A stretch of DNA of 64,000 nt from the NCBI RefSeq assembly GCF_022846255.1, contig NZ_AP025682.1; one strand, 5' to 3'. The notes beneath the pieces were generated by a model. That model saw only the letters and a list, made by a program, of their open reading frames with translations. It ran no database searches and had not been told where the DNA came from. Shown piece after piece: positions 1 through 57,884 of the stretch. The position numbers and the translations under genes were made by a program. How positions within the stretch are numbered: the first letter of the stretch is position 1; each line of letters opens with the position of its first letter. Origin of the DNA: Escherichia coli. GTDB taxonomy: Bacteria > Pseudomonadota > Gammaproteobacteria > Enterobacterales > Enterobacteriaceae.

Positions 1-587
1 TTTCTGTCCAGTTCTATTTCATTCCAGTTAGATAAAACAAATTTTTCGTCAAATAACGTAAAAGGTAATACTGCTGTCCAGCCAACAACATAACCATTCC
101 AACCATTCGTTTGACCATATTTAGCTGAGACGTAGTCACCAGATTGATTATGTAATCCAATATACGGTTTAAAAAAGCCCCACTCGCCGTTCCAGCCGAG
201 GTAACCGAATCCATAAAACATATCAAGATCGTCACCCCATGAGTTATCCCATTGGCCATAAATTTTGCCAAAGAATGTCATATCAGAGTCAAAGAGTCTG
301 ACATGCGTCATTGCTGAAACCGTATGATTTCTCCCTGCTACAGCATGATTGAGTACATTACTTTCATAAAATGAGTAAAATTCTGCTTCTTTAAAATTTA
401 CCCCAAAATCCGCAGTCACTTTCCATACTTCACCACGGTGAGTGTTTACAAATCCACTATTCCAGTCTGCATAACCCGCATTTATTGAACCAAAGGTTCC
501 TTTATATTCTAATGAAGAATATGCAGGAAAATGATAGATAGCTGTTATCAGGGTACACGCAATAAGAAGTCGTCTTTTGGCAGACAT
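1..587 (-). CDS. Partial CDS (N-terminal ~195 aa; 3' end lies beyond window start): putative outer-membrane beta-barrel channel, Tsx/OmpK-like
   Basis: Minus-strand ATG at 585-587 opens a frame that runs uninterrupted to position 1. N-terminus MSAKRRLLIACTLITAIYHFPAYS resembles a Sec signal peptide. Mature part is W/Y/G/N/D/F-rich with motifs EAEFYSFYES and GFGYLGWNGEWGFF, reminiscent of Tsx-family porins. AT-rich. Family assignment by eye only. Confidence 0.55.
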   Translation of the reverse strand, partial: MSAKRRLLIACTLITAIYHFPAYSSLEYKGTFGSINAGYADWNSGFVNTHRGEVWKVTADFGVNFKEAEFYSFYESNVLNHAVAGRNHTVSAMTHVRLFDSDMTFFGKIYGQWDNSWGDDLDMFYGFGYLGWNGEWGFFKPYIGLHNQSGDYVSAKYGQTNGWNGYVVGWTAVLPFTLFDEKFVLSNWNEIELDR

Positions 588-1098
588 ATAATATGTTCTC
601 CATTCATTGTTTTTATGATTCCATAGGAATTAATACACCAGACAATTCATTTTTATTAAGAATGACCAGGCCAGTATATTTAAAGATGACTATCGAAGCG
701 TGATGAAGATCGCAGATTACTTTTGCGAACGGGCGGAGAGATATCGTGTTTCAGAAAATGTGTCTGTTTTAAATATCACCCTTTGATTTATAGGCATTTT
801 TCATGATGAACTTAGCATTGACTGCTGAACGTATTTCTTTGTCTCTCTATAGTATTACACTAACCTTTAATAATTAATTTCCTTTAGCTATTCACTTTTG
901 ATAGAGGAAAACACCTTTTTTTGTGAATCCATGGATATTTTTAAGTTAAATAAATTGATGTATTGAAATATTATTCCGTAAAAATGCGAGGCGTCTTCAG
1001 AAAAAGAATTGATAAAACAGAAGTGAATTAAAAGCGCTGTATAATAGCGGCGGGTGCTTGAGGCTATCTGTCTCAGGCATTAGCTGAACGGCAGATAG

Positions 1099-1153
1099 AG
1101 AAAAGCCCCGAGTGATATTTTACCATCAACCCGAGGCCCCCTATATGCTGAAC
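1099..1153 (-). ncRNA. sokC: sokC-like antisense RNA of the hok/sok type I toxin-antitoxin locus (position inferred)
   Basis: Placed antisense to the mokC translation start by analogy with hok/mok/sok loci. Boundaries are not determined from the sequence itself. Confidence 0.4.
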
Positions 1154-1354
1154 ACATGTAGAGTGCCTCTTACTGACCGTAAGGTCAAGGAGAAGAGAGC
1201 AATGAAGCAGCATAAGGCGATGATTGTCGCCCTGATCGTCATCTGTATCACCGCCGTAGTGGCGGCGCTGGTAACGAGAAAAGACCTCTGTGAGGTTCAC
1301 ATCCGAACTGGCCAGACGGAGGTTGCTGTTTTCACGGCTTACGAATCCGAGTAA
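1145..1354 (+). CDS. mokC: MokC, overlapping leader/regulatory ORF of hokC
   Basis: ORF beginning MLNTCRVPLTDRKVKEKRA and reading through the hokC frame; same stop as hokC. Confidence 0.7.
   Translation: MLNTCRVPLTDRKVKEKRAMKQHKAMIVALIVICITAVVAALVTRKDLCEVHIRTGQTEVAVFTAYESE
1202..1354 (+). CDS. hokC: HokC (Gef) type I toxin, 50 aa small membrane peptide
   Basis: Translation MKQHKAMIVALIVICITAVVAALVTRKDLCEVHIRTGQTEVAVFTAYESE is recognised as the Hok/Gef family peptide. Confidence 0.9.
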   Translation: MKQHKAMIVALIVICITAVVAALVTRKDLCEVHIRTGQTEVAVFTAYESE

Positions 1355-1428
1355 GAGCAACGGCGGGGAGTGATCCCCGCCACTTTACAGGTGCTCGCAT
1401 ATCTTCAACGCACCCTGTTTTTTACCTG

Positions 1429-1450
1429 GCCTGCCCACGGGCAGGCTTTT
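1429..1450 (+). terminator. GC-rich hairpin followed by TTTT in the hokC-dnaJ intergenic region; candidate intrinsic terminator
   Basis: Inverted repeat gcctgccc acg ggcaggc followed by tttt. A second GC hairpin at 1362-1384 may serve the convergent dnaJ transcript. Confidence 0.4.
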
Positions 1451-1457
1451 GGGGAGG

Positions 1458-2588
1458 TTAGCGAGTCAGGTCGTCGAAAAACTTCTTCACACCATCAAAG
1501 AAGCTCTTTGAGCGCGGGCTGTTGTGCTCGCCGGTTGGGCCACCGAAGCTTTCTTGCAGCTCTTGCAGCAGCTGTTTCTGCTTCTCGTTCAGGCCTACCG
1601 GTGTTTCGACGACAACGCGGCACAGCAAATCACCCTGTGCGCCACCGCGGACAGACTTGACGCCTTTACCGCGCATACGGAACAGCTTACCGGTCTGGGT
1701 TTCGCCAGGCACTTTCAGTTTGACGCGACCATCAAGAGTCGGTACTTCGATTTCGCCACCCAGCGCCGCCATAGCGAAGTTGATCGGGACTTCGCAATAG
1801 AGGTTGTTGCCTTCACGCTCGAAAATCGGGTGCTGTTTAACCTGAACCTGAACGTACAGATCGCCTGCCGGTGCGCCATGCTCGCCCGCTTCACCTTCGC
1901 CCGCAAGACGGATGCGGTCTCCAGTGTCCACTCCTGCCGGGATTTTAACGGACAGCGTTTTGCTGCGCTCAACACGACCATGACCATGACATTTGTTGCA
2001 CGGATCTTTGATCAGCGTACCGCGGCCCTGACAGTGTGGACAGGTCTGCTGTACAGCGAAGAAGCCCTGACGCATCTGCACCTGACCAGAACCATGACAG
2101 GTCGGACAGGTCTGCGGCTGTGTACCTGGTTTTGCACCGCTACCGTGGCAAACGTCACACTCTTCCAGAGTCGGAATGCGGATCTCTTTGGTCACGCCAC
2201 GTACAGCTTCTTCGAGGGTGAGCTCCATGTTATAGCGTAAATCAGCACCGCGCGCCGCACGTTGACGACCACGTCCGCCGCCAAAAATATCGCCGAAAAC
2301 GTCACCAAAAATATCGCTGAAGTCTGCGCCGCCGCCAAAACCGCCGCCGCCCATGCCGCCTTGCTCAAACGCAGCATGACCATACTGATCGTATGCCGCA
2401 CGTTTTTGCGAGTCGGTCAGAACTTCATAAGCTTCCTTGATCTCTTTAAATTTCGCCTCGGCCTCTTTGTCACCCTGGTTACGGTCCGGGTGGTATTTCA
2501 TGGCCAGGCGTTTGTAGGCCTTTTTGATTTCACGCTCTTCCGCTGTTTTGGAAACGCCTAAAATCTCGTAATAATCTTGCTTAGCCAT
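1458..2588 (-). CDS. dnaJ: Chaperone DnaJ (Hsp40)
   Basis: 376 aa starting [12 protein letters not shown] with J-domain HPD motif, G/F-rich region and four CxxCxGxG zinc-finger repeats. The ORF-track start is an upstream alternative codon; I trimmed to the MAKQ start. Confidence 0.97.
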
Positions 2589-13838: not shown

Positions 13839-16301
13839 TCAGACTCCTAACTTCCATGAGAGGGTACGTAGCAGATCAGCAAAGACACCGGCAGCTGTAA
13901 CGTCATTGCCCGCACCATATCCGCGCAGTACCAACGGCAGCGGCTGATAATAGTGGCTATAGAAGGCCAGGGCGTTTTCGCCATTTTTCACTTTGAACAG
14001 CGGATCATTACCATCCACTTCGGCAATCTTCACGCGGCAGACGCCATCTTCATCAATATTGCCAACATAGCGCAAAACTTTTCCTTCATCACGGGCCTTC
14101 GCCACACGCGCGGCAAAGAGATCGTCGAGCTGTGACAGATTCGCCATAAAAGCGGCGACATCACCCTCGGCGTTAAACTCTGCGGGCAGCACAGGTTCAA
14201 TTTCAATATCCGCCAGCTCCAGTTCACGTCCCGTTTCACGAGCGAGAATCAATAGCTTACGCGCCACATCCATACCAGAAAGATCATCTCGCGGGTCCGG
14301 TTCGGTATAACCCATTTCCCGCGCCAGTGTGGTCGCCTCGGAGAAACTCATGCCTTCGTCTAACTTGCCGAAGATATAAGAAAGCGAACCTGAAAGAATG
14401 CCGGAGAACTTCACCAATTCATCACCTGCATTTAACAGATTTTGCAGGTTCTCAATAACCGGTAATCCAGCCCCAACGTTGGTGTCATAGAGGAATTTAC
14501 GCCGCGATTTTTCCGCCGCATGACGCAACAGATGGTAGTAATCCATCGACGAGGTGTTAGCCTTTTTGTTCGGCGTGACGACGTGGAAACCTTCGCGCAG
14601 GAAGTCAGCATACTGATCCGCCACTGCCTGGCTGGAAGTGCAGTCAACAATGACCGGGTTCAGCAGATGATATTCTTTCACGAGGCGAATTAAGCGCCCG
14701 AGATTAAACGGCTCTTTGGCTTGCGCCAGTTCTTCCTGCCAGTTTTCCAGATTAAGGCCATGTACATTGGTGAGCAGAGCCTTCGAGTTGGCAACACCGC
14801 AGACACGTAAGTCGATATGTTTATTCTTCAGCCAGCTTTGCTGACGCTTCAGTTGCTCCAGCAGCGCACCGCCAACGCCACCGACGCCAATCACAAACAC
14901 TTCGATAACCTGATCGGTATTGAACAGCATCTGATGAGTAACGCGCACGCCAGTGGTCGCATCATCGTTATTTACCACGACAGAGATTGAGCGTTCAGAA
15001 GATCCCTGAGCAATGGCGACAATGTTGATATTGGCGCGGGCCAGTGCGGCAAAGAATTTCGCCGAGATCCCACGCAAGGTGCGCATACCATCACCTACCA
15101 CCGAGATAATGGCCAGCCGTTCCGTCACTGCCAGCGGCTCCAGTAAGCCTTCTTTCAGTTCCAGGTAGAACTCTTCCTGCATTGCCCGTTCAGCTCGCAC
15201 ACAGTCGCTTTGTGGAACGCAGAAACTGATGCTGTATTCGGAAGATGATTGCGTAATCAGCACCACGGAAATACGGGCGCGTGACATCGCTGCAAAGACG
15301 CGCGCCGCCATGCCAACCATCCCTTTCATCCCCGGGCCGGAAACGCTGAACATTGCCATGTTATTCAGATTGGAAATGCCCTTGACCGGTAATTCGTCTT
15401 CATCACGGCTGGCACCAATGAGCGTACCTGGTGCTTGAGGATTTCCGGTATTTTTAATCAGGCAAGGGATCTGGAACTGGGCGATGGGGGTAATGGTGCG
15501 GGGGTGAAGAACTTTAGCGCCGAAATAGGAAAGCTCCATCGCTTCCTGGTAGGACATCGACTTCAACAACCTCGCATCGGGCACCTGACGCGGGTCGCAG
15601 GTATAGACCCCGTCAACGTCCGTCCAAATCTCGCAACAATCGGCGCGTAAACAGGCAGCCAGCACCGCCGCGGAGTAGTCGGAACCGTTGCGTCCAAGCA
15701 CCACCAGTTCGCCTTTTTCATTACCGGCGGTGAAACCTGCCATCAGCACCATGTGATCAGCCGGAATACGACTTGCCGCGATACGGCGAGTGGACTCAGC
15801 AATATCGACGGTAGATTCGAGGTAATGCCCCACTGCCAGCAGTTTTTCGACCGGATCGATAACGGTAACGTTGTGACCACGCGCTTCTAACACGCCGGCC
15901 ATAATGGCGATCGACATTTTCTCGCCACGGCAAATCAGCGCAGCGTTGATGCTATCCGGGCACTGCCCCAACAAACTGATGCCATGCAGGACATGTTTTA
16001 TTTGGGCAAATTCCTGGTCGACGAAAGTTTTCAATTGTGCCAGCGGAAATCCCGGCTGGGCGGCGGCGAGTCCCGTCAGAAGTTCGGCAAAAATACGTTC
16101 GGCATCGCTGATATTGGGTAAAGCATCCTGGCCGCTAATGGTTTTTTCAATCATCGCTACCAGATGGTTGGTGATTTTGGCGGGGGCAGAGAGGACGGTG
16201 GCCACCTGCCCCTGCCTGGCATTGCTTTCCAGAATATCGGCAACCCGCAGAAAACGTTCTGCATTTGCCACTGATGTACCGCCGAACTTCAACACTCGCA
16301 T
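13839..16301 (-). CDS. thrA: Bifunctional aspartokinase I / homoserine dehydrogenase I
   Basis: 820 aa starting [20 protein letters not shown]; ORF-track start trimmed to this Met. Confidence 0.97.
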
Positions 16302-16327
16302 GGTTGTTACCTCGTTACCTTTGGTCG

Positions 16328-16363
16328 AAAAAAAAGCCCGCACTGTCAGGTGCGGGCTTTTTT
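16328..16363 (-). terminator. thr operon attenuator (rho-independent terminator between thrL and thrA)
   Basis: Minus strand reads AAAAAAGCCCGCACCTGACAGTGCGGGC followed by a U-tract, immediately downstream of the thrL stop. Confidence 0.85.
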
Positions 16364-16381
16364 CTGTGTTTCCTGTACGCG

Positions 16382-16450
<69 letters not shown>

Positions 16451-16660
16451 TGTTGTGTACTCTGTAATTTTTATCTGTCTGTGCGCTATGCCTATATTGG
16501 TTAAAGTATTTAGTGACCTAAGTCAATAAAATTTTAATTTACTCACGGCAGGTAACCAGTTCAGAAGCTGCTATCAGACACTCTTTTTTTAATCCACACA
16601 GAGACATATTGCCCGTTGCAGTCAGAATGAAAAGCTGAAAATCACTTACTAAGGCGTTTT

Positions 16661-17347
16661 TTATTTGGTGATATTTTTTTCAATATCATGCAGCAAACGG
16701 TGCAACATTGCCGTGTCTCGTTGCTCTAAAAGCCCCAGGCGTTGTTGTAACCAGTCGACCAGTTTTATGTCATCTGCCACTGCCAGAGTCGTCAGCAATG
16801 TCATGGCTCGTTCGCGTAAAGCTTGCAGTTGATGTTGGTCTGCCGTTGTGTCACTTTTCGCCGGTTGTTGTATTAATGTTGCTAATTGATAGCAATAGAC
16901 CATCACTGCCTGCCCCAGATTGAGCGAAGGATAATCCGCCACCATCGGCACACCAGTAAGAACGTCAGCCAACGCTAACTCTTCGTTAGTCAGCCCGGAA
17001 TCTTCGCGACCAAACACCAGAGCGGCATGGCTCATCCATGAAGATTTTTCCTCTAACAGCGGCACCAGTTCTACTGGCGTAGCGTAGTAATGATATTTCG
17101 CCCGACTGCGCGCAGTGGTGGCAACAGTGAAATCGACATCGTGTAACGATTCAGCTAGTGTCTTGAAAACTTTAATATTATCAATAATATCACCAGATCC
17201 ATGTGCGACCCAGCGGGTGGCTGGCTCCAGGTGTGCCTGACTATCAACAATCCGCAGTTCGCTAAAACCCATCGTTTTCATTGCCCGCGCCGCTGCCCCA
17301 ATATTTTCTGCTCTGGCGGGTGCAACCAGAATAATCGTTATACGCAT
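16661..17347 (-). CDS. lasT: SpoU-family tRNA/rRNA methyltransferase LasT (YjtD)
   Basis: 228 aa starting MRITIILVAPARAENIGAAARA; ORF-track start trimmed. Confidence 0.85.
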   Translation of the reverse strand: MRITIILVAPARAENIGAAARAMKTMGFSELRIVDSQAHLEPATRWVAHGSGDIIDNIKVFKTLAESLHDVDFTVATTARSRAKYHYYATPVELVPLLEEKSSWMSHAALVFGREDSGLTNEELALADVLTGVPMVADYPSLNLGQAVMVYCYQLATLIQQPAKSDTTADQHQLQALRERAMTLLTTLAVADDIKLVDWLQQRLGLLEQRDTAMLHRLLHDIEKNITK

Positions 17348-29384: not shown

Positions 29385-29416
29385 GCCGGATGCGGCGCAC
29401 CAGCATCGCATCCGGT
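29385..29416. repeat. REP-like palindromic hairpin downstream of ettA
   Basis: gccggatgcg...cgcatccggt: 9-bp inverted repeat with the GCCGGATGCGGCG signature of REP elements. Probable ettA terminator and left edge of the toxin-antitoxin cassette. Confidence 0.5.
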
Positions 29417-29429
29417 ATTAGTTAAATGA

Positions 29430-29714
29430 TTAATGGGAAGCAAGTTCCCGGAAAAAGGCAGGATTTTCTTTAATTGTGGCAAGTACTTTTGCAGCCAATC
29501 CCGTAGGATTTCTTCGCTTCGATTCCCAGCTTTTAATGGTATCCACACTGGTTCCCAGAGCTTTTGCCATCTCACTTTGAGAAACGTTGAGTTGCTCACG
29601 AATAGCTTTAACATCCGCAATTTCGTAGCGGGTCACCCGTGCAGGTTCTTTTAAACCTTGTTTAATCTCGACAGCCTCTTCCAGAGAGGTTTTCAACTCA
29701 TCAAAAAAACTCAT
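29430..29714 (-). CDS. HigA2-like antitoxin (XRE-family HTH, addiction-module antidote)
   Basis: 94 aa MSFFDELKTSLEEAVEI...LNVSQSEMAKALGTSVDTIKSWESKRRNPTGLAAKVLATIKENPAFF: C-terminal XRE helix-turn-helix; start 1 nt after the toxin stop. Confidence 0.8.
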   Translation of the reverse strand: MSFFDELKTSLEEAVEIKQGLKEPARVTRYEIADVKAIREQLNVSQSEMAKALGTSVDTIKSWESKRRNPTGLAAKVLATIKENPAFFRELASH

Positions 29715-29715
29715 T

Positions 29716-30048
29716 TTATATCTCGCCTTTGAGCAGTTTCGTCAACTTCTTTAGTTGAGCTTTTTCCGTATCTGTCAGACTATCTTTGGCATTTATCGGA
29801 TAGGCCATAATCAAATAAATAATCTCTTCCGTCGCCAGAAAGTAAATTATTCTGACACTGCCACTTTTTCCCTGTGAACCCGCAGCCATTCGGACTTTAC
29901 GCAATCCACCAGTCTGCTGAATGAGATCACCTTTATCGGGAGTTCCGATGAGTTCTTTTTGTAATTCCTTTAATTCATCATCGGTTGCAATCTGCTTGAT
30001 CTGACGCGTAAACATTGGCGTCTCTATAAATATTTTCGCCTTACCCAT
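29716..30048 (-). CDS. HigB2/Gp49-like toxin of the RelE superfamily (type II TA toxin)
   Basis: 110 aa with the motif QTGGLRKVRMAAGSQGKSGSVRIIYF, typical of HigB-2 / addiction-module killer proteins; strong RBS GGAGGGGG; toxin-first gene order. Confidence 0.8.
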   Translation of the reverse strand: MGKAKIFIETPMFTRQIKQIATDDELKELQKELIGTPDKGDLIQQTGGLRKVRMAAGSQGKSGSVRIIYFLATEEIIYLIMAYPINAKDSLTDTEKAQLKKLTKLLKGEI

Positions 30049-30063
30049 TCCCCCTCCCTGTCA

Positions 30064-30100
30064 GGTACATTGTACACCTAAATGGAGTACTAAGTACACT
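30064..30100 (-). promoter_or_regulatory. Putative promoter/operator of the toxin-antitoxin cassette
   Basis: Two near-palindromic GTACnnnGTAC elements (ggtacattgtacacc and agtactaagtacact) 20-50 bp upstream of the toxin start. Confidence 0.4.
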
Positions 30101-30139
30101 TTTAAATCAGTAATCCCACTCAACATCTTATAAAGATGA

Positions 30140-46388: not shown

Positions 46389-47978
46389 TTAATGCTCGCG
46401 GGTCTGGTGGAACTGAACGTCCGGATAACGTTCCTGCGCCAGGCGCAGATTGACCATGCTGGTAGCGATGTAAGCGAGGTTATCGCCGCCATCAAGCGCC
46501 AGTTGGCTTTCGTTCTTACGCTTGAACTCTTCGAATTTCTTCGCGTCCGCACATTCTACCCAGCGGGCGGTGGCAACGTTGACTGACTCATACACTGCTT
46601 CAACGTTGTATTCGCTCTTCAGGCGCGCTACCACCACATCAAACTGCAGCACACCAACCGCGCCAACGATCAGATCGTTGTTGGAGATCGGACGGAACAC
46701 CTGCACCGCCCCCTCTTCGGAAAGCTGTACCAGCCCTTTGAGCAGCTGTTTTTGCTTCAGCGGATCTTTCAGGCGGATACGACGGAACAGTTCTGGCGCG
46801 AAGTTCGGAATACCGGTGAACTTCATCATCTCACCCTGGGTAAAGGTATCGCCGATCTGAATGGTGCCGTGATTGTGCAGGCCGAGGATATCGCCCGGAT
46901 ACGCTTCTTCAACGTGCGAACGGTCGCCTGCCATAAAGGTCAGCGCGTCGGAGATCACTACATCTTTCGCGGTGCGCACCTGGCGCAGCTTCATGCCTTT
47001 TTCATATTTACCGGATACCACGCGCATAAACGCCACGCGGTCGCGATGTTTCGGGTCCATGTTGGCCTGAATTTTAAATACGAAGCCGGTAAATTTATCT
47101 TCGCTCGCTTCTACGGTACGGGTATCGGTCTGACGCGGCATCGGCGCAGGCGCCCACTCCACCAGGCCATCCAGCATATGATCGACGCCGAAGTTACCCA
47201 GCGCAGTACCAAAGAATACCGGGGTGATTTCGCCCGCAAGGAACAGCTCTTTGTCGAACTCATTAGACGCGCCTTTCACCAGCTCCAGTTCGTCACGCAG
47301 CTGCTGTGCCAGATCTTCACCAACCGCAGCGTCGAGATCCGGGTTATTCAGCCCTTTAACAATGCGGACTTCCTGAATGGTGTGGCCTTTACCGCTCTGA
47401 TAGAGATAGGTTTCATCTTTATAAAGGTGGTAAACGCCTTTAAACAGCTTGCCGCAGCCAATCGGCCAGGTGATCGGTGCGCAGCCGATTTTCAGCTCGT
47501 TCTCAACTTCATCGAGCAGTTCCATCGGGTCGCGGATATCACGGTCAAGTTTGTTCATAAAGGTGAGGATCGGCGTATCGCGCAGACGGGTAACTTCCAT
47601 CAGCTTACGGGTACGATCTTCTACACCTTTTGCGGCGTCGATAACCATCAGGCAGCAGTCCACCGCCGTCAGGGTACGATAGGTATCTTCCGAGAAGTCT
47701 TCGTGCCCCGGGGTATCGAGCAAGTTAACCAGGCAGTCGTGATACGGAAACTGCATCACAGACGTAGTGATGGAGATCCCACGCTGCTTTTCCATCTCCA
47801 TCCAGTCCGACTTAGCGTGCTGGTTAGAGCCACGGCCTTTTACTGTACCGGCGGTCTGAATGGCCTGTCCGAACAGCAGCACCTTCTCGGTGATGGTAGT
47901 CTTACCGGCGTCCGGGTGAGAAATAATGGCAAAAGTGCGGCGCTTCGCCACCTCTTGCAAATAAGGAGACAACGTCAT
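46389..47978 (-). CDS. prfC: Peptide chain release factor 3
   Basis: 529 aa starting [28 protein letters not shown] (translational GTPase). Confidence 0.95.
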
Positions 47979-48068
47979 AATTCTTTCTTCTTGAGTAAGC
48001 GGCATCGCGCCGCGCTTGTTGAAAACGAAAAATTGCGGCTATTTTACCCATCAACGGGGGGGAGGCAA

Positions 48069-48746
48069 TCAGTGTTTACACAGGAGCTGCTCCAGTTCGT
48101 GCAACGAAGAAACGGTCCAGGTGGGCGCGATGCCTTCTGGTTGCTCGCGATTGTGCGCATTCAGCCAGCAGGTCGCAAGCCCGGCGTTGATGCCACCGAG
48201 AATATCGGACTCAGCAGTGTCGCCAACCATCAGCACGCGTGAACGGTCAGGATTGCCCGCCTGTTCCAGCGCATAATCGAAAATTTTCTTATTCGGTTTG
48301 GCAACGCCAACTTCTTCGGAAATCACCAGCAAATCGAAGTAATCACGCAGGCCCGTGCGTTCCAGACGTACCTGTTGCAAGGCGCTAAAGCCGTTGGTGA
48401 TGATGCCGATTTTGGCGTTGCCACGAATGGCGTTAAGCAGGGAAACCGCCCCCGGCAACGGCGTACAGATTTCCGCCATCGCATTAATAAAGGCCTCGTT
48501 GAGTTTACCCGGTTCGACGTTCAGCCGTTCGGCCCAGCTCTCAAACCGCCCGTGCTGAAGCTGTAATGAAGTGATCGCGCCGTTTTGATAATCCACCCAC
48601 AGTGGCTTGTTAACGGCCTGATAGTCCTGAAAATCTTCAGCGGTAAAGGTGACGCTGTAATCAAGAAACATCCGCTGCAGGCCGGTGAATGAGTCAAAGG
48701 TAAACAGCGTTTCATCGGCATCAAAGAAAATCCAGTCCCACTTCAT
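48069..48746 (-). CDS. yjjG: Pyrimidine 5'-nucleotidase YjjG (HAD family)
   Basis: 225 aa starting [15 protein letters not shown] (HAD DxD motif). Confidence 0.9.
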
Positions 48747-48760
48747 TATTCCACCTTGTC

Positions 48761-49207
48761 TTACATACTGATTGGTAACGCCATGATGATGGCGTCTTCG
48801 CGACCGTCCGTGGTGGGGTAGTAATTGCGGCGAATCGTCGCCTCGTTAAAGCCTAAACTTTCGTACAGGGCAATGGCGGCAGCATTTGAGGCACGGACTT
48901 CCAGCCATAGCGTCGCCACGCCGCGTTTTTCCAGTTCGTCGATCAGATGTTCCAGCAGCGCCCTTCCCAATCCCTGACGCTGATAGTCAGGATCGACCGC
49001 AATATTGAACAATGTAGCTTCATCCAGCACCACTTGCGTAATCGCAAACGCCGCCATTTTGCCGTTTTGCGTTAACTGAAAGTTGAGATAGCGCTCGCCC
49101 TGGTTGCTGGCAAAGGTTTTTTCACTCCACGGAAAGGTGTGGGCGCGTTGTTCAATGTGGAAAGCAGCTGGTAAATCAGTCGTTTCGAGGGAAGAAATCG
49201 TGTTCAT
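48761..49207 (-). CDS. rimI: Ribosomal protein S18 alanine N-acetyltransferase RimI
   Basis: 148 aa GNAT-family protein. Confidence 0.9.
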
Positions 49208-49589
49208 ATGTGCAAATTTGTTGCCATAACGCGGCGCGTGCCGTTGGGTTTGCCCGTAATTCGGTGAGCGCCGGTGATGCCACCTGAGCGCCTTCCAGTG
49301 ATAGCGGTTCGTCAGTACCCAACCGCCAGCTGTTGCAGCGGCTGCCTTGCGGCAGCATCGCGATTTTTTCTGGCGTCAGTTGCAGCACTTGATCGGGGCT
49401 GACGGTTAACGCGCGCAGAACATCGCTCACTATAGGATCGGTCAGGGCGGGAAGATCGTTTGCCACCATCACCAGACGGACGTGTGCCGGGATCGCAATG
49501 GCAATCTCCCCCTGCAACGCGCCAGGGCGACGCAGCGACCACTGGGTAATGCCCAGTTGCTGTAACTGCCAGTCTCGTCGGGATGTCAT
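49176..49589 (-). CDS. holD: DNA polymerase III psi subunit HolD
   Basis: 137 aa starting MTSRRDWQLQQLGITQWSLRRP; 3' end overlaps the rimI start. Confidence 0.9.
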   Translation of the reverse strand: MTSRRDWQLQQLGITQWSLRRPGALQGEIAIAIPAHVRLVMVANDLPALTDPIVSDVLRALTVSPDQVLQLTPEKIAMLPQGSRCNSWRLGTDEPLSLEGAQVASPALTELRANPTARAALWQQICTYEHDFFPRND

Positions 49590-49691
49590 AGCGAATCGCT
49601 CCTGTTGTCAGGGGCGCAAATATAGCAAATTCGTCGATACCGCGCCAACATATGGCTATAATCGCCGCCAGTATTAATTGAGGAGCATTCC

Positions 49692-50723
49692 ATGTCTGCA
49701 TTTACCCCGGCAAGTGAAGTCTTGCTGCGTCACAGTGATGATTTCGAACAAAGCCGTATTCTTTTTGCCGGAGACTTACAGGATGACCTGCCCGCGCGTT
49801 TAGATACCGCGGCCAGCCGTGCTCATACCCAGCAATTCCACCACTGGCAGGTGTTAAGCCGCCAGATGGGGGATAACGCCCGTTTTAGTCTGGTCGCCAC
49901 GGCGGATGATGTCGCAGATTGCGATACGCTGATTTACTACTGGCCGAAGAACAAACCGGAAGCCCAGTTCCAGTTGATGAATTTACTTTCTCTGCTGCCA
50001 GTGGGCACGGATATTTTTGTCGTTGGCGAGAACCGCAGCGGCGTGCGCAGCGCCGAGCAGATGCTGTCAGATTATGCGCCGTTGAATAAAATGGACAGCG
50101 CTCGTCGCTGTGGCCTCTATTTTGGTCGTCTGGAAAAACAGCCAGTATTTGATGCCGATAAATTCTGGGGCGAATACAGCGTCGATGGCCTGACGGTCAA
50201 AACGCTGCCTGGCGTGTTTAGCCGCGACGGTCTGGATGTCGGTAGCCAGTTGCTGCTCTCGACGTTAACCCCGCACACGAAAGGTAAAGTGCTGGATGTC
50301 GGCTGTGGCGCGGGCGTACTTTCGGTTGCCTTTGCGCGCCATTCGCCGAAAATTCGTCTCACTCTGTGCGATGTCTCTGCACCTGCGGTAGAAGCCAGCC
50401 GCGCAACACTTGCGGCCAACGGTGTTGAAGGTGAAGTCTTTGCCAGTAACGTCTTTTCCGAGGTGAAAGGTCGCTTTGATATGATAATCTCCAACCCGCC
50501 GTTCCACGATGGGATGCAAACCAGCCTGGATGCCGCGCAAACGCTGATTCGCGGCGCGGTGCGTCATCTGAACAGCGGCGGCGAGTTGCGAATTGTAGCG
50601 AACGCCTTCCTGCCTTACCCGGACGTGCTGGATGAGACATTTGGTTTCCACGAAGTGATTGCGCAAACCGGGCGCTTCAAGGTGTATCGCGCCATTATGA
50701 CCCGCCAGGCGAAGAAAGGTTGA
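49692..50723 (+). CDS. rsmC: 16S rRNA (guanine1207-N2)-methyltransferase RsmC
   Basis: 343 aa with SAM-binding motif [12 protein letters not shown] and NPPFH. Confidence 0.95.
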
Positions 50724-50739
50724 GTATCTGATATATATC

Positions 50740-50780
50740 GCCGCATACCGTGTCGGATGCGGCGTACACGCCTTATCTGA
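50740..50780. repeat. REP element downstream of rsmC
   Basis: gccgcataccgtgtcggatgcggcgtacacgccttatctgacc carries the GGATGCGGCGT...ACGCCTTATC REP signature. Confidence 0.6.
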
Positions 50781-50922
50781 CCGACAAACGAATTATCCAC
50801 AATCCGCTGATGGACATTTTTCCAGCAATTACACTGCTGTCGATAATTAACTATTGACGAAAAGCTGAAAACCACTAGAATGCGCCTCCGTGGTAGCAAT
50901 TCTTTTTAAGAATTGATGGTAT

Positions 50923-51009
50923 GCGAAGGTGGCGGAATTGGTAGACGCGCTAGCTTCAGGTGTTAGTGTCCTTACGGACGTGGGGGTTCAAGTCCCCCCC
51001 CTCGCACCA
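50923..51009 (+). tRNA. leuQ: tRNA-Leu (anticodon CAG), copy 1
   Basis: 87-nt sequence GCGAAGGTGGCGGAATTGGTAGACGCGCTAGCTTCAGGTGTTAGTGTCCTTACGGACGTGGGGGTTCAAGTCCCCCCCCTCGCACCA with long variable arm and encoded CCA. Confidence 0.95.
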
Positions 51010-51037
51010 AAAACCACGTTGATATTGCTCGCACTGG

Positions 51038-51124
51038 GCGAAGGTGGCGGAATTGGTAGACGCGCTAGCTTCAGGTGTTAGTGTTCTTACGGACGTGGGG
51101 GTTCAAGTCCCCCCCCTCGCACCA
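51038..51124 (+). tRNA. leuP: tRNA-Leu (anticodon CAG), copy 2, with one substitution in the variable arm
   Basis: Identical to copies 1 and 3 except T instead of C at window position 51085 (GTGTTCTTAC versus GTGTCCTTAC). Confidence 0.95.
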
Positions 51125-51158
51125 AACGAGGCGATATCAAAAAAAGTAAGATGACTGT

Positions 51159-51245
51159 GCGAAGGTGGCGGAATTGGTAGACGCGCTAGCTTCAGGTGTT
51201 AGTGTCCTTACGGACGTGGGGGTTCAAGTCCCCCCCCTCGCACCA
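51159..51245 (+). tRNA. leuV: tRNA-Leu (anticodon CAG), copy 3
   Basis: 87 nt, identical to copy 1. Confidence 0.95.
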
Positions 51246-51283
51246 ATTATCTTTACTTCTTTTCTTGTCTCTTCACTGTTTTA

Positions 51284-51520
51284 TCACCCCTGATTCAAAT
51301 TCATTATCATCAGCATGATGCCAGCAATAAGCGCCAGGCACGATGGTAGCAAAACGTAATGCCGTAAATGTTTGTGATACAACATCACCGGCGTCAATAC
51401 CAATCCCATCAGAATGACAATCCGCCATTGATCCGGCGATAAATCCGCATACATCAGCCCTGCAATCAGCAATCCCGGCAGCAACACTCCCCAGCCACTG
51501 CCCAGCGTACGTTGCAACAT
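51284..51520 (-). CDS. yjjZ: Small membrane protein YjjZ (78 aa)
   Basis: MLQRTLGSGWGVLLPGLLIAGLMYADLSPDQWRIVILMGLVLTPVMLYHKHLRHYVLLPSCLALIAGIMLMIMNLNQG; ORF-track start trimmed to the internal Met. Confidence 0.7.
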   Translation of the reverse strand: MLQRTLGSGWGVLLPGLLIAGLMYADLSPDQWRIVILMGLVLTPVMLYHKHLRHYVLLPSCLALIAGIMLMIMNLNQG

Positions 51521-51535
51521 GGTTTCATCTCTTTC

Positions 51536-51581
51536 ATTGATAATGATAACTAATATCATATGATAATTTTTATCATTTGCA
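51536..51581. promoter_or_regulatory. Fur-box region in the divergent yjjZ/fhuF promoter
   Basis: attgataatgataactaatatcatatgataatttttatcatttgc contains overlapping GATAATGATAAC-like hexamer repeats matching the Fur consensus GATAATGATAATCATTATC. Confidence 0.6.
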
Positions 51582-51660
51582 AGCCAGAGAAATCCCTTGC
51601 TATCGGGTAAACCTATCGATAGGATTAGCAATAATTATCATTTAGATTACTATCACGATT

Positions 51661-52449
51661 ATGGCCTATCGTTCCGCACCGCTCTATGAAGATGTTATCT
51701 GGCGAACGCATCTCCAGCCGCAGGATGCTGGGCTTGCACAAGCCGTGCGGGCGACGATCGCCGAACATCGTGAACATTTGCTGGAGTTTATCCGCCTGGA
51801 TGAACCCGCCCCACTTAACGCCATGACGCTGGCGCAATGGTCATCAACTAATGCGCTAAGTTCTCTACTCGCAGTCTATTCCGATCATATCTACCGCAAC
51901 CAACCTTTGATGATCCGCGAAAACAAACCGCTGATCTCACTGTGGGCGCAATGGTATATCGGCCTGATGGTACCACCATTAATGCTGGCGCTGCTGACTC
52001 AGGAAAAAGCATTAGATGTGTCGCCGGAACATGTCCACGTTGAGTTTCACGAAACCGGACGCGCCGCCTGTTTCTGGGTCGATGTGTGTGAAGATAAAAA
52101 CGCAACACTACATTCGCCGCAGCAGCGAATGGAAACGTTAATCAGCCAGGCGCTGGTTCCGGTTGTGCAGGCACTAGAAGCAACGGGAGAGATTAACGGC
52201 AAACTTATCTGGAGCAATACCGGTTATTTGATCAACTGGTATCTGACTGAGATGAAACAGCTGCTCGGCGAGGCGACGGTTGAATCGCTGCGCTATGCCC
52301 TCTTTTTTGAGAAAACGCTTACTACCGGTGAAGATAATCCACTCTGGCGTACCGTGGTGCTACGCGACGGCCTGCTGGTGCGCCGCACTTGCTGCCAGCG
52401 TTATCGCTTACCGGATGTGCAGCAATGTGGCGATTGTACGCTGAAATGA
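51661..52449 (+). CDS. fhuF: Ferric-siderophore reductase FhuF (2Fe-2S)
   Basis: 262 aa ending with the cysteine cluster CCQRYRLPDVQQCGDC. Confidence 0.9.
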   Translation: MAYRSAPLYEDVIWRTHLQPQDAGLAQAVRATIAEHREHLLEFIRLDEPAPLNAMTLAQWSSTNALSSLLAVYSDHIYRNQPLMIRENKPLISLWAQWYIGLMVPPLMLALLTQEKALDVSPEHVHVEFHETGRAACFWVDVCEDKNATLHSPQQRMETLISQALVPVVQALEATGEINGKLIWSNTGYLINWYLTEMKQLLGEATVESLRYALFFEKTLTTGEDNPLWRTVVLRDGLLVRRTCCQRYRLPDVQQCGDCTLK

Positions 52450-52486
52450 AAGCACTGCCGGGGAAGTAAACCCGGCATCATGCGGA

Positions 52487-53164
52487 TTAATAAGGATGCA
52501 ACACATTACTTGTTTCGCAATGCCGCATACATAACAGAATATCTGCGGCCTCCAACAACCCTGCATCAGAACTGACGCCCAGTTTCGACATCACATTAAA
52601 TTTATGTGCACGGATCGTTTTGATATTGCGTTTAAGCTGCTCGGCAATTTGTGTCATTGAGTAGCCACGCGACATAAAGCGCAATATTTCTCTCTCCGTC
52701 GGGCTTAACGTCCGGCTTTGGTTAATGTACCACTGATTGTTCAGTCGATCGGTCGCCTGACGTACACCATTTAATGACAAAAAGAGTTCCTGATGAAAAA
52801 TCTCCAGCGTTGACGCTTTACTTAATACACCGTCCAGCGGTGATGGCGATAATGAACCAATCAGCCGAGCTTCAATATCATCATCCGCAATAACTAAACG
52901 CCGGGTACGCGGAAACTTAATCGCCAGTTCAGTCAGGCAGGATAATCCCTCTCTGCGCGCACTTCTCATGGCAGAAAAAGAAAAAATGACCGCTGCAAAC
53001 GAGATCCGCGACATGGCATCCTGAAATGACTCCTGACTGGTATAGGTATGGAGCTTATAAGGGTTACCCGCAAACTTTCTGAATAAACTCTCAATACCGA
53101 TACTACTCATGACGCATTTTTCTATGAGTGCGACATTTCTCTTCTTAATTCGGCTGTGTTCCAT
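52487..53164 (-). CDS. bglJ: LuxR-family transcriptional activator BglJ
   Basis: 225 aa with C-terminal LuxR-type HTH; overlaps the yjjQ 3' end. Confidence 0.9.
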
Positions 53165-53847
53165 TCTGCGGCATCTCCATAAACAGAAGGCAAGTTAAGT
53201 TCTCTTGCACCCTGCGCGCTATTTATCCATGCATACATTTCAGCGTTGCTGTGAATTGCCAGTCGACGCATCGCACTGTTTTTTTGGGCGCTGATAGTTT
53301 TATTACTTTTCTTAAGCAATGAAGCTATCTGGTTGATGCCCCATCCTTTACCTAATAGCCGCAGTACCTTGCGCTCTGAAAGAGTGAGAATGACGGAGCG
53401 ATAGCTAAAATCATGAGTTTCAGTCATTGCCGGAGAGGTCAGCATGGCGCTGATACGCTCTGAGTGCGTATTGCCGGAACGTACGGTCTTGACCAGATTC
53501 TCAATGGGTTCAACATCAGACAATAACGTCGCCGTAGGGCACATGAGCAATTCTACTGCCTGGGAATACCAGGAGCGTGACACCATGAAAACCCAGTGAA
53601 TTTCCCGATATTGTGAGATTAAAGAGTAATAATGCTCACAAACGGAACGTGGATCTTCACTTTCACCGGCCAAATCAGCAATGACTAATCCGGAACGACG
53701 TAATTGTAATAAGGTAAGGTCCTCCGCAGAGGCGCTGGATATTATTTCATATTCAGGGAAGTGAGTCCTCATGACCTCTTTTAACCCTGCTTGCATAACA
53801 GGTATTTTACTGATAACAATTCCATTTTTGCAGCATCCTGGCAACAT
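53122..53847 (-). CDS. yjjQ: LuxR-family transcriptional regulator YjjQ
   Basis: 241 aa with C-terminal LuxR-type HTH ([34 protein letters not shown]). Confidence 0.9.
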
Positions 53848-54466
53848 ATTTCCTCCACATCCACTGTCTAAAAATCATGATGGTTTATTCAAGGTATTCA
53901 TTCCTTAAATATTTCCAGCAAATTAATAGATTAAGCGAATAAATTATCCTTAGCATTCACTTTCATATCAGCATACTCCTGCTGCACAACAACTCCACTG
54001 CATGTGTCAGAAGGTTAGCATCAAATGATAACCTGGTGAAATAGCCTGGAGACATTTAAAATATCTACATTAAGTTGTTAGAAATACTTAATGAAAAACA
54101 GAAATCTCATTCATTTAATTTATAATTAAATGATATCTCTTCCCGCAGAGTGCGGGAATCACACAATCAATATTTATTCAATAAAATCTGATGGTTTTAA
54201 CTTGTTAACATTAAAAAACGCGCCCAGCTATCTATTATCCTGACTCGTAAAGGCCAAATAACAAATTCATTATAGTGATAATATTCATGCGATAGTTTGT
54301 TTACGGCGAGAGATAATTCGCTTTTTATCACCGAGCATCTCCCGATAACCAGGATTAATCAGCGCAATTTTGATCTTAACCTACCGCAAAACAACCGTGC
54401 TTCATGATACAAATGGATTCTCATTATCTGAACAATACGCAGCACGTCTATGACAAAGGGCGAGTT

Positions 54467-55701
<1,235 letters not shown>

Positions 55702-55808
55702 AATTGCCTCGCTTAAAGCACACGGATGAGAGACAGCCTCCTTTCCTCCGTGTGTTACTATAAAAGTTATCTCCCTTCTCGTTCATCGTTCCATATTTGA
55801 GAAACAGT

Positions 55809-56348
55809 ATGTCTTCCAGAGTTTTGACCCCGGACGTCGTTGGTATTGACGCCCTGGTACACGATCACCAAACCGTTCTGGCAAAAGCTGAAGGCGGTGT
55901 GGTTGCCGTATTTGCTAACAATGCCCCGGCGTTTTATGCCGTCACGCCTGCACGCCTGGCTGAACTGCTGGCGCTGGAAGAAAAGCTGGCGCGTCCGGGA
56001 AGCGATGTCGCTCTGGACGATCAACTCTATCAGGAACCGCAAGCCGCTCCCGTTGCTGTACCCATGGGGAAATTCGCCATGTATCCGGACTGGCAACCCG
56101 ATGCCGACTTTATCCGCCTGGCGGCGCTATGGGGCGTGGCGCTAAGAGAGCCGGTGACCACCGAAGAACTGGCCTCATTCATTGCCTACTGGCAGGCGGA
56201 AGGTAAAGTCTTTCACCATGTGCAGTGGCAACAAAAACTGGCGCGCAGCCTGCAAATCGGCCGTGCCAGCAACGGCGGACTGCCGAAACGAGATGTGAAT
56301 ACGGTCAGTGAACCTGACAGCCAAATTCCACCAGGATTCAGAGGGTAA
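55809..56348 (+). CDS. dnaT: Primosomal protein DnaT
   Basis: 179 aa starting [21 protein letters not shown]. Confidence 0.9.
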
Positions 56349-56350
56349 CG

Positions 56351-57088
56351 ATGAAAAACGTTGGCGACCTGATGCAACGCCTGCAAAAAATGATGCCTGC
56401 CCATATCAAACCTGCGTTCAAAACGGGTGAAGAACTACTGGCCTGGCAGAAAGAACAAGGAGCGATCCGCTCCGCCGCTCTCGAACGTGAAAATCGGGCG
56501 ATGAAAATGCAGCGCACCTTTAACCGCTCCGGTATTCGTCCACTGCATCAGAACTGCTCCTTTGAGAACTATCGCGTTGAGTGTGAAGGGCAGATGAATG
56601 CGTTAAGCAAAGCGCGCCAGTATGTCGAAGAGTTTGACGGCAACATCGCCAGCTTCATCTTTTCTGGCAAGCCCGGAACCGGCAAAAACCATCTGGCGGC
56701 GGCAATCTGCAACGAGCTGCTGCTACGCGGTAAATCCGTATTGATCATCACCGTGGCCGATATTATGTCGGCGATGAAAGATACCTTCAGGAATAGCGGT
56801 ACCAGCGAAGAACAACTGCTTAACGATCTGAGCAACGTTGATCTGCTGGTGATCGATGAGATCGGCGTGCAGACCGAATCGAAATACGAAAAAGTGATCA
56901 TCAACCAGATCGTCGATCGCCGCTCTTCTTCCAAACGCCCAACCGGGATGCTGACCAACAGTAATATGGAAGAGATGACCAAGTTGCTGGGCGAACGCGT
57001 GATGGACCGTATGCGCCTGGGTAACAGTTTGTGGGTGATCTTCAACTGGGATAGCTACCGTAGCCGGGTAACGGGTAAAGAGTATTAA
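56351..57088 (+). CDS. dnaC: DNA replication helicase loader DnaC
   Basis: 245 aa with Walker A GKPGTGKNHLA; begins 3 nt after dnaT. Confidence 0.95.
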   Translation: MKNVGDLMQRLQKMMPAHIKPAFKTGEELLAWQKEQGAIRSAALERENRAMKMQRTFNRSGIRPLHQNCSFENYRVECEGQMNALSKARQYVEEFDGNIASFIFSGKPGTGKNHLAAAICNELLLRGKSVLIITVADIMSAMKDTFRNSGTSEEQLLNDLSNVDLLVIDEIGVQTESKYEKVIINQIVDRRSSSKRPTGMLTNSNMEEMTKLLGERVMDRMRLGNSLWVIFNWDSYRSRVTGKEY

Positions 57089-57136
57089 TCCCCGTTTCTG
57101 GCGGTATACTGCGACACAATTCCACCTTGAGTAATG

Positions 57137-57631
57137 ATGATGAAAACTGTTAAACATCTTCTGTGCTGTGCCATTGCCGCCAGCGCATTAATTTCCACCG
57201 GGGTGCATGCTGCGTCCTGGAAAGATGCGCTCTCCAGCGCCGCCAGCGAACTTGGCAACCAAAACAGCACGACACAGGAAGGCGGTTGGTCGCTCGCTTC
57301 ATTAACTAGCTTGCTTAGCAGCGGGAACCAGGCCTTAAGCGCAGATAACATGAACAATGCCGCAGGCATACTGCAATACTGCGCGAAGCAGAAGTTGGCT
57401 TCGGTAACCGATGCCGAAAACATCAAGAATCAGGTACTGGAAAAACTGGGCCTGAACAGTGAAGAGCAAAAAGAAGACACCAACTATCTGGATGGCATTC
57501 AGGGTTTGCTGAAAACCAAAGATGGTCAGCAACTCAATCTGGATAATATTGGAACGACTCCGCTGGCAGAAAAGGTGAAAACCAAAGCCTGCGATCTGGT
57601 GTTAAAGCAGGGGCTGAACTTCATTTCCTGA
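57137..57631 (+). CDS. yjjA: Secreted protein YjjA (unknown function)
   Basis: About 164 aa with signal peptide MMKTVKHLLCCAIAASALISTGVHA; three tandem ATG codons make the exact start ambiguous. Confidence 0.8.
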   Translation: MMKTVKHLLCCAIAASALISTGVHAASWKDALSSAASELGNQNSTTQEGGWSLASLTSLLSSGNQALSADNMNNAAGILQYCAKQKLASVTDAENIKNQVLEKLGLNSEEQKEDTNYLDGIQGLLKTKDGQQLNLDNIGTTPLAEKVKTKACDLVLKQGLNFIS

Positions 57632-57884
57632 ACCGCGAAACGCCGCGTTTTAGCTGTTACCCGGCTGACGCGGCTCTCTCCTGCCCTTTTCCCTGCTCCT
57701 GGACGGTTTTACCCCTGTTACACGGGAAGCGACCGTAATCAAAAAAGTCTGTTTATAAACTAATTCCTAACAACATCGCATTTTTTTGACACTAGAATTG
57801 CAGCAATATGGCGACGCCATTACATTGTGCTTTTCAAAAAGCTTAAACGTTGGCTAAACGGCCCGGTTTAGTGAGGATCGCCCG

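Follow-up and report, generated by a model that had tools for sequence, protein, structure and literature searches.

Which task is served by an outer membrane channel gene that lies in AT-rich DNA at a chromosomal position where Escherichia coli K-12 carries no such gene? The question is raised by a 64,000-nt stretch of E. coli DNA (assembly GCF_022846255.1, contig NZ_AP025682.1), analysed as a whole and referred to below as the window. At its start, next to the hokC locus, a minus-strand gene for a Tsx-like channel is cut by the window edge. The product is probably a conserved accessory protein, a monomeric 12-stranded barrel of the Tsx superfamily, which heads a sulfatase cassette and would act as a substrate-selective channel for sulfate esters.

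The channel gene and its family

The minus-strand open reading frame (ORF) runs from position 587 to position 3 and off the window start, comprising 195 stop-free codons, as the first-pass annotation of the bare sequence had described; its first residues are MSAKRRLLIACTLITAIYHFPAYSSLEYKG. These codons make up the 5′ 77% of a 253-codon gene, codons 196–253 lying beyond the edge. The visible 195 residues are identical to residues 1–195 of the CFT073 protein WP_001274832.1 (253 aa, RefSeq product name "outer membrane protein OmpK"), and the window differs from the CFT073 gene at eight synonymous and no nonsynonymous positions. An intact 253-codon ORF ending in ...GYDF (in full ...MLGYDF) was found in all closest genomes; these last codons are outside the window. 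The motif GGAG at 598–601 is the ribosome-binding site (RBS), 10 nt upstream of the ATG. The two features of the gene itself are as follows:

1–587, minus strand: 5′ part (codons 1–195 of 253) of a Tsx-superfamily channel gene; stop-free, identical to the CFT073 protein, assigned by Pfam, predicted model and Foldseek
516–587, minus strand: predicted Sec signal peptide, codons 1–24, MSAKRRLLIACTLITAIYHFPAYS; sequence features and model helix 3–18

Both the signal peptide and the unusual residue composition noted at first reading were confirmed. Read from the sequence, the N-terminus resembles a Sec signal, with a positively charged n-region (K4R5R6), a hydrophobic core at residues 7–20 and A-Y-S at 22–24; in the AlphaFold model, residues 3–18 form a helix and the first strand begins at residue 28. 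Among genera, no region of the channel varies more than the signal peptide (21 of 24 positions). Residues 8–11, L-I-A-C, could be read as a lipoprotein motif; this was rejected, since the hydrophobic stretch before the cysteine is too short and the cysteine is not conserved in homologues. The mature protein contains 9.2% F, 5.2% W, 7.4% Y, 12.7% G and 7.9% N. Features of outer membrane targeting are thus the predicted N-terminal signal peptide, present in the window, and the C-terminal aromatic residue of ...MLGYDF, seen in orthologues only. The AT-richness is equally real: GC-content is 38.2% in the channel ORF (1–587), 32.4% at 588–933 and 37.3% at 934–1110, against 51.2% for the whole window.

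Family assignment depended on the full-length protein. A Pfam search with the 195-aa fragment alone gave no match even at E ≤ 10, whereas the full-length orthologue matched Channel_Tsx (PF03502) with 50.1 bits (independent E-value 3.9e-13, residues 106–253), a domain present in all database homologues of the channel. The check on the fragment proposed in the first-pass annotation therefore comes out negative and, taken alone, would have led to the Tsx idea being wrongly discarded. In NCBIfam, the sole matching model was NF008574/PRK11528, on which the fragment scored 77.1 bits and the full-length protein 119.3 bits, against a cut-off of 282 bits; the Tsx model NF011686, on which K-12 Tsx scores 573 bits, was not matched.

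An AlphaFold model built from a 24-sequence alignment (pLDDT 91.6, pTM 0.81) consisted of an N-terminal helix and 12 long strands. Foldseek comparison of this predicted model returned Tsx (1TLW, chain 1TLW_A) as the best solved match, with a TM-score of 0.66, an E-value of 1.4e-7 and 13% identity, followed by the 12-strand NanC. At the sequence level, hhalign of the subfamily profile against K-12 Tsx gave a probability of 5% and no similarity, and neither phmmer nor hmmsearch with the 24-sequence profile found a match among all PDB sequences, Tsx included. By its full-length Pfam match and predicted structure, the channel is a member of the Tsx superfamily with a 12-stranded antiparallel beta-barrel; judged by sequence comparison, it is not a Tsx orthologue. 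The original description of the gene as Tsx/OmpK-like thus stands at the level of the superfamily, through the full-length PF03502 match and the 1TLW fold match, but not as orthology, given the lack of similarity to K-12 Tsx. An unauthenticated Vibrio OmpK sequence aligned with Tsx (28% identity, E = 3e-19) but not, in hhalign, with the channel subfamily profile. The RefSeq name OmpK therefore looks like a family label rather than a statement of orthology, and we note only as a lead, given the unauthenticated OmpK sequence, that the channel may not be a classical OmpK orthologue.

The sulfatase cassette across genera

The neighbours of the channel gene lie outside the window, and gene order was read from islet-bearing genomes. 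The islet, about 4 kb long, comprises the channel gene (first), a sulfatase gene and a gene for a transposase-derived zinc-ribbon protein. In every islet-bearing E. coli examined, the sulfatase gene follows about 20 bp after the channel stop codon on the same strand, an arrangement in which the two would be co-transcribed. The E. coli sulfatase has 497 residues, a signal peptide and the Ser-type motif S-S-P-S-R. It is essentially the same protein as PDB entry 3ED4 (E = 0), an unpublished structural-genomics structure designated "putative arylsulfatase from E. coli" (PMC9063841); among its closest relatives of solved structure are steryl-sulfatase and arylsulfatase A. The third gene (414–419 codons) is variously annotated as "transposase", "IS1/IS1595 zinc-binding domain protein" or "hypothetical". 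Its product of about 415 residues combines a zinc-ribbon/helix-turn-helix part with a transposase (RNase-H-like) fold and is probably a regulator derived from a transposase. The possibility that the 419-aa gene is an active insertion sequence transposase mobilising the islet was rejected, the gene being single-copy, syntenic and diverging with its host under an omega of 0.09.

The association with the sulfatase was assessed by scanning one genome per species for the channel and identifying neighbours by tblastn. Channels at least 55% identical were found at 21 loci; the sulfatase was adjacent at all 21 (divergent neighbours counted) and the zinc-ribbon gene at 20, while nucleoside genes (PNP, NupC, nucleoside hydrolase) were adjacent at none. 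Channels at most 46% identical occupied 32 loci, and the sulfatase was adjacent at 0 of 32; nine of these, enterobacterial paralogues of 35–37% identity, stand beside an inosine-uridine nucleoside hydrolase gene and NupC. This clean split between sulfatase-linked and nucleoside-linked loci is the main basis for assigning function: from gene neighbourhood, we infer that the channel subfamily serves the sulfatase and the sister subfamily nucleoside catabolism. The suggestion that the window carries a second copy of Tsx is not sustained, since the channel lacks similarity to K-12 Tsx and is always linked to the sulfatase, not to nucleoside genes.

The sister subfamily (35–37% identity) is located immediately upstream of the nucleoside hydrolase and NupC genes in Citrobacter, Buttiauxella, Atlantibacter, Raoultella and Enterobacter (loci L043, L045–L049, L053 and L065; L012/L013). 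It matches NF008574/PRK11528 best, yet below the model's cut-off, and probably represents the genuine nucleoside channel within this branch. A Klebsiella sister paralogue was found in a plasmid context, beside PNP, NupC, the hydrolase and Tn3/IS110 elements.

In Salmonella, Citrobacter, a further enterobacterium and a Vibrio, the cassette reads channel, sulfatase, anaerobic sulfatase-maturating enzyme (anSME) and the ~415-aa gene, the last on the opposite strand in the Vibrio. A second Salmonella type has the channel divergent from the sulfatase operon, followed by a 5′-nucleotidase-like gene, and one Vibrio cassette locus lies beside deo genes. Arylsulfotransferase genes flank the cassette in several genera. 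The location is also shared: the cassette adjoins dnaJ and/or nhaA at 13 of the 21 loci, including those of Citrobacter, Kosakonia, Phytobacter, Klebsiella spallanzanii and E. albertii. Cassettes that include anSME are found between dnaJ and nhaA in Citrobacter, Kosakonia and Phytobacter; in Salmonella the cassette adjoins nhaA. A low cassette GC-content relative to the flanks was observed in Citrobacter and Salmonella as well.

The radical-SAM/SPASM enzyme anSME is present in cassettes of Salmonella, Citrobacter, Kosakonia, Phytobacter and Vibrio and absent from every Escherichia cassette seen, namely those of E. coli (both allele classes described below), E. albertii, E. whittamii and Escherichia sp. 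MOD1-EC7003 (compare L003 6184–6311 in Escherichia with Citrobacter L006 8380–9579). As the loss is common to all Escherichia versions, the deletion is probably old. Sulfatase maturation in E. coli is incompletely understood; descriptions exist of aslB, ydeM and a suspected third system (PMC8379841; Benjdia et al. 2007, as cited in PMC6189696).

The islet in E. coli and its junction with the core chromosome

Megablast with the islet part of the window (1–933) over 5426 complete E. coli genomes detected the islet in 1273 (23.5%), always chromosomal and in single copy. Carriers include CFT073, Nissle 1917, E2348/69 and SMS-3-5; K-12, Sakai and IAI1 do not carry it. The gene is therefore an already catalogued, widespread accessory gene, and the view of it as a strain-specific copy has to be abandoned. 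Two allele classes were distinguished: about 932 genomes are 98–99% identical to the window, among them the known B2 strains CFT073, Nissle and E2348/69, and about 337 are roughly 89% identical, SMS-3-5 among them. The islet has been retained in E. coli of the B2 and F types; the A/B1/E reference strains checked (K-12, IAI1, Sakai) lack it.

Between the allele classes, the ratio of nonsynonymous to synonymous divergence (dN/dS, omega) was 0.03–0.05 for the channel, 0.03 for the sulfatase and 0.09 for the zinc-ribbon gene, and the ORFs of the islet are intact in CFT073, SMS-3-5, 23AR0806 and others. Such strong purifying selection speaks for an operon that is still functional. Synonymous divergence (dS) was 0.5–1.0 for the islet genes, 0.27–0.36 for nhaA and about 0.11 for dnaJ. 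The high dS at the islet and nhaA, together with 93.7% identity of the hokC-side spacer to K-12, suggests deep haplotypes or imports from other Escherichia. Of the 11 channel residues that differ between the classes, the signal peptide holds five and a predicted surface loop one; across genera, 27% of positions vary in predicted loops and 20% in strands.

The remaining features of the first 1.2 kb are as follows:

588–933, minus strand: islet-specific non-coding upstream DNA, 32% GC, with the RBS at 598–601; without K-12 counterpart
696–720, minus strand: operator-like conserved block; alignment with Citrobacter and Salmonella, columns about 309–330
934–1051, no strand assigned: core sokC-nhaA intergenic DNA common to K-12; blastn, islet/core junction at 933/934
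1052–1204, plus strand: sok antisense RNA and hokC/mokC regulatory region, a neighbour outside the channel gene; Rfam RF01794

According to blastn, window positions 934–1377 correspond to K-12 17170–16728 with 93.7% identity, while 1–933 have no K-12 counterpart, which confirms that the gene is absent at this position in K-12. In K-12, O157 Sakai and IAI1, nhaA directly follows hokC/sokC and no channel gene is found. In islet-bearing genomes, a 4000-bp segment (L003 4934–8933) stands in place of 72 bp of K-12 (17171–17242), with core sequence returning some 245 bp upstream of nhaA. The 72-bp empty site is identical in K-12 and Sakai, IAI1 having been compared at the annotation level only. A search of the K-12/Sakai empty site for an islet remnant, and of the islet ends for terminal inverted or direct repeats or microhomology, yielded only short AT-rich chance matches; insertion and deletion are thus not told apart by the junction sequence.

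The annotation shows neither integrase nor tRNA genes next to the islet. Plasmid and phage collections contained no genuine mobile copies of the channel subfamily, the high-identity "plasmid" matches being Mb-sized mislabelled chromosomes. Among the signs of a mobile island, the locus thus shows atypical base composition but none of the mobility hallmarks. The horizontal acquisition initially proposed from low GC agrees with this composition; a recent event is unlikely in view of the synteny across genera, the lack of mobile copies and terminal repeats, and the common loss of anSME. The simplest interpretation is that the locus is old, enterobacterial and atypical in composition, and that some E. 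coli lineages retained it while others lost it.

The approximately 510 bp of upstream DNA, described at first as one AT-rich region, is indeed AT-rich but consists of two parts, 346 bp belonging to the islet and the core sokC-nhaA spacer. The islet part (588–933) presumably holds the operon promoter and contains blocks conserved with the upstream regions of Citrobacter and Salmonella. One of these, at 696–720 (about 110–133 bp before the start codon), is conserved among E. coli, Citrobacter and Salmonella; in Citrobacter it forms a perfect 7-bp inverted repeat, GTGATGT-N7-ACATCAC, which is degenerate in E. coli. Its conservation suggests a shared operator. The Citrobacter repeat contains a TGTGA...TCAC motif and may be a candidate regulator site, possibly CRP-like. 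The sok RNA was identified with 120.5 bits (E = 1.7e-28), and the Rfam E-value scan of window positions 1–1500 revealed nothing besides it; hokC-mokC is encoded on the plus strand at about 1202–1354.

The window is reversed in orientation relative to K-12, with dnaK at 4593–2677 and dnaJ ending at 1458, both on the minus strand. It lacks the IS186A copy that K-12 carries between dnaJ and hokC (K-12 15387–16731), and the two K-12 alignments overlap by 12 bp at window 1366–1377, consistent with an IS186 target site. A comparison with E. coli RMDEC465 showed collinearity from yaaJ to prfC, with identity reaching only about 96–97%; the window lacks the IS621 located between yaaA and yaaX in that strain. 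About 740 bp (29397–30137) have no match in RMDEC465, nor does the stretch beyond ~47.9 kb (47955–64000), where that strain carries a prophage.

Proposed function, alternatives and known systems

In the proposed mechanism, the barrel would form a substrate-selective diffusion channel in the outer membrane, through which small sulfate esters, most likely aryl or phenolic sulfates, would reach the periplasmic sulfatase. By analogy, Tsx supplies nucleosides to inner-membrane nucleoside transporters. Aryl and phenolic sulfates are the best guess because of the steryl-sulfatase and arylsulfatase A relatives of the enzyme and the co-localisation with arylsulfotransferase genes in several genera. More tentatively, and with somewhat less than even confidence, we suggest that a distinct, uncharacterised Tsx branch was re-tasked from nucleosides to small sulfate esters, such as host-derived aryl or steroid sulfates, and would provide a route across the outer membrane dedicated to the periplasmic sulfatase, under a transposase-derived regulator.

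Several observations weigh against a working sulfate-ester channel. The main weakness is the missing cognate anSME in Escherichia, for without it the Ser-type sulfatase may lack activity, leaving the channel without a task; the proposed function presumes that the sulfatase would be active nonetheless. The substrate specificity is deduced from neighbouring genes only, and no functional study of the channel or the operon was found in the searchable literature. A simple strict sigma-70 scan of window positions 1–1500 detected no promoter site, and AT-rich upstream DNA of this kind may be silenced. Truncated channel forms (141–190 aa) occur in some E. coli lineages, with database proteins of about 190 aa among them, insertion sequence IS1 is present at the locus in some genomes, and the match in the E. 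albertii type strain is split, with a best segment of 143 aa; judging by these sequences, the gene is inactivated in some lineages.

Such truncations and IS1 insertions, along with the anSME loss in all Escherichia versions seen, the absence of the islet from the A, B1 and E reference strains checked and the AT-rich upstream DNA lacking a consensus promoter in the simple scan, would also fit an operon that became functionless after the anSME loss and is now a silent, decaying remnant, lost lineage by lineage. We regard this as unlikely: omega values of 0.03–0.09 at a dS of 0.5–1.0 for all three genes would not be expected of pseudogenes, and intact ORFs persist in CFT073, SMS-3-5 and 23AR0806, among others. 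Import of nucleosides or deoxynucleosides by a functional Tsx paralogue, that is, a second nucleoside channel, would explain the Pfam membership and Tsx-like fold, the presence of the 35–37% relatives in nucleoside-catabolism clusters and the single Vibrio cassette that adjoins deo genes. It becomes quite improbable, however, when the empty profile-profile comparison with K-12 Tsx and the unmatched NCBIfam Tsx model are considered alongside the subfamily loci, all 21 of which are sulfatase-linked and none of which adjoins PNP, NupC or a nucleoside hydrolase.

The first-pass annotation pointed to a role as a phage or colicin receptor, and a recent strain-specific island gene with this main role would be in line with the GC-content (38% against 51%), the absence from K-12, Sakai and IAI1 and the transposase-like gene within the islet; Tsx and OmpK are known phage and colicin receptors. 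We consider this explanation very improbable. A recent island is difficult to reconcile with single chromosomal copies in 23.5% of genomes at a site syntenic across genera, and with the lack of terminal repeats, annotated integrase or tRNA genes and true plasmid or phage copies. The channel dN/dS of 0.03–0.05 speaks against it as well. Since only one of the 11 allele-class differences falls in a predicted surface loop and variable positions across genera amount to 27% in predicted loops and 20% in strands, the loops are not hypervariable, contrary to what an arms race would lead one to expect of a receptor. The sequences compared here thus lend no support to the receptor idea.

For the sulfate-ester channel, which we continue to favour, the added value is modest. 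The gene itself is of little import, being annotated in RefSeq and present in more than 1,200 complete genomes, and a sulfatase structure (3ED4) exists. What is added is a Tsx-family branch whose coupling to a sulfatase cassette is strict in Enterobacteriaceae as well as in a Vibrio. This coupling provides a testable hypothesis for an uncharacterised outer membrane channel and is relevant to the question of why a sulfatase operon absent from the A/B1/E reference strains checked persists in B2/F E. coli. If the more tentative re-tasking reading is true, retention under strong purifying selection in B2/F lineages, rich in extraintestinal pathogenic E. coli (ExPEC), despite the anSME loss would imply an unknown maturation route for Ser-type sulfatases, as well as a niche function in the intestine or the urinary tract. 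Since gut and urine are rich in host sulfate esters, a confirmed uptake route would interest researchers of ExPEC and commensal metabolism.

Among characterised proteins, E. coli Tsx (PDB 1TLW/1TLY), a nucleoside-specific channel and the receptor for phage T6 and colicin K, is the closest structural counterpart of the predicted model. Both belong to PF03502, share the monomeric 12-stranded barrel, carry a signal peptide and a C-terminal Phe, and are probably substrate-selective channels rather than general porins. They differ in sequence, with 13% structure-based identity and no similarity by hhalign, phmmer or hmmsearch, and in length, the channel (253 aa) being about 40 residues shorter than K-12 Tsx (294 aa); the genomic partners of the channel are sulfatase and maturation genes, not nucleoside genes. 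Vibrio OmpK, the receptor of vibriophage KVP40 and the source of the RefSeq product name, is of similar size and belongs to the same Pfam superfamily. Vibrio proteins are 31–38% identical to the channel, the sulfatase-linked Vibrio copy 51%.

Closer in sequence is the 244-aa "hypothetical protein" paralogue of NF008574/PRK11528, with 35–37% identity over the full length and shared motifs such as NWNEIELDRND. The channel nevertheless reaches only 77–119 bits on this model against its 282-bit cut-off, and the paralogue is found in nucleoside-utilisation clusters, never beside the sulfatase. As a gene set, the cassettes of other genera resemble Klebsiella atsBA-type operons, in which a periplasmic Ser-type sulfatase is likewise followed by a radical-SAM/SPASM maturase. 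The Escherichia cassette departs from this arrangement in having no maturase, and the cassette as a whole adds to it an outer membrane channel and a transposase-derived zinc-ribbon protein.

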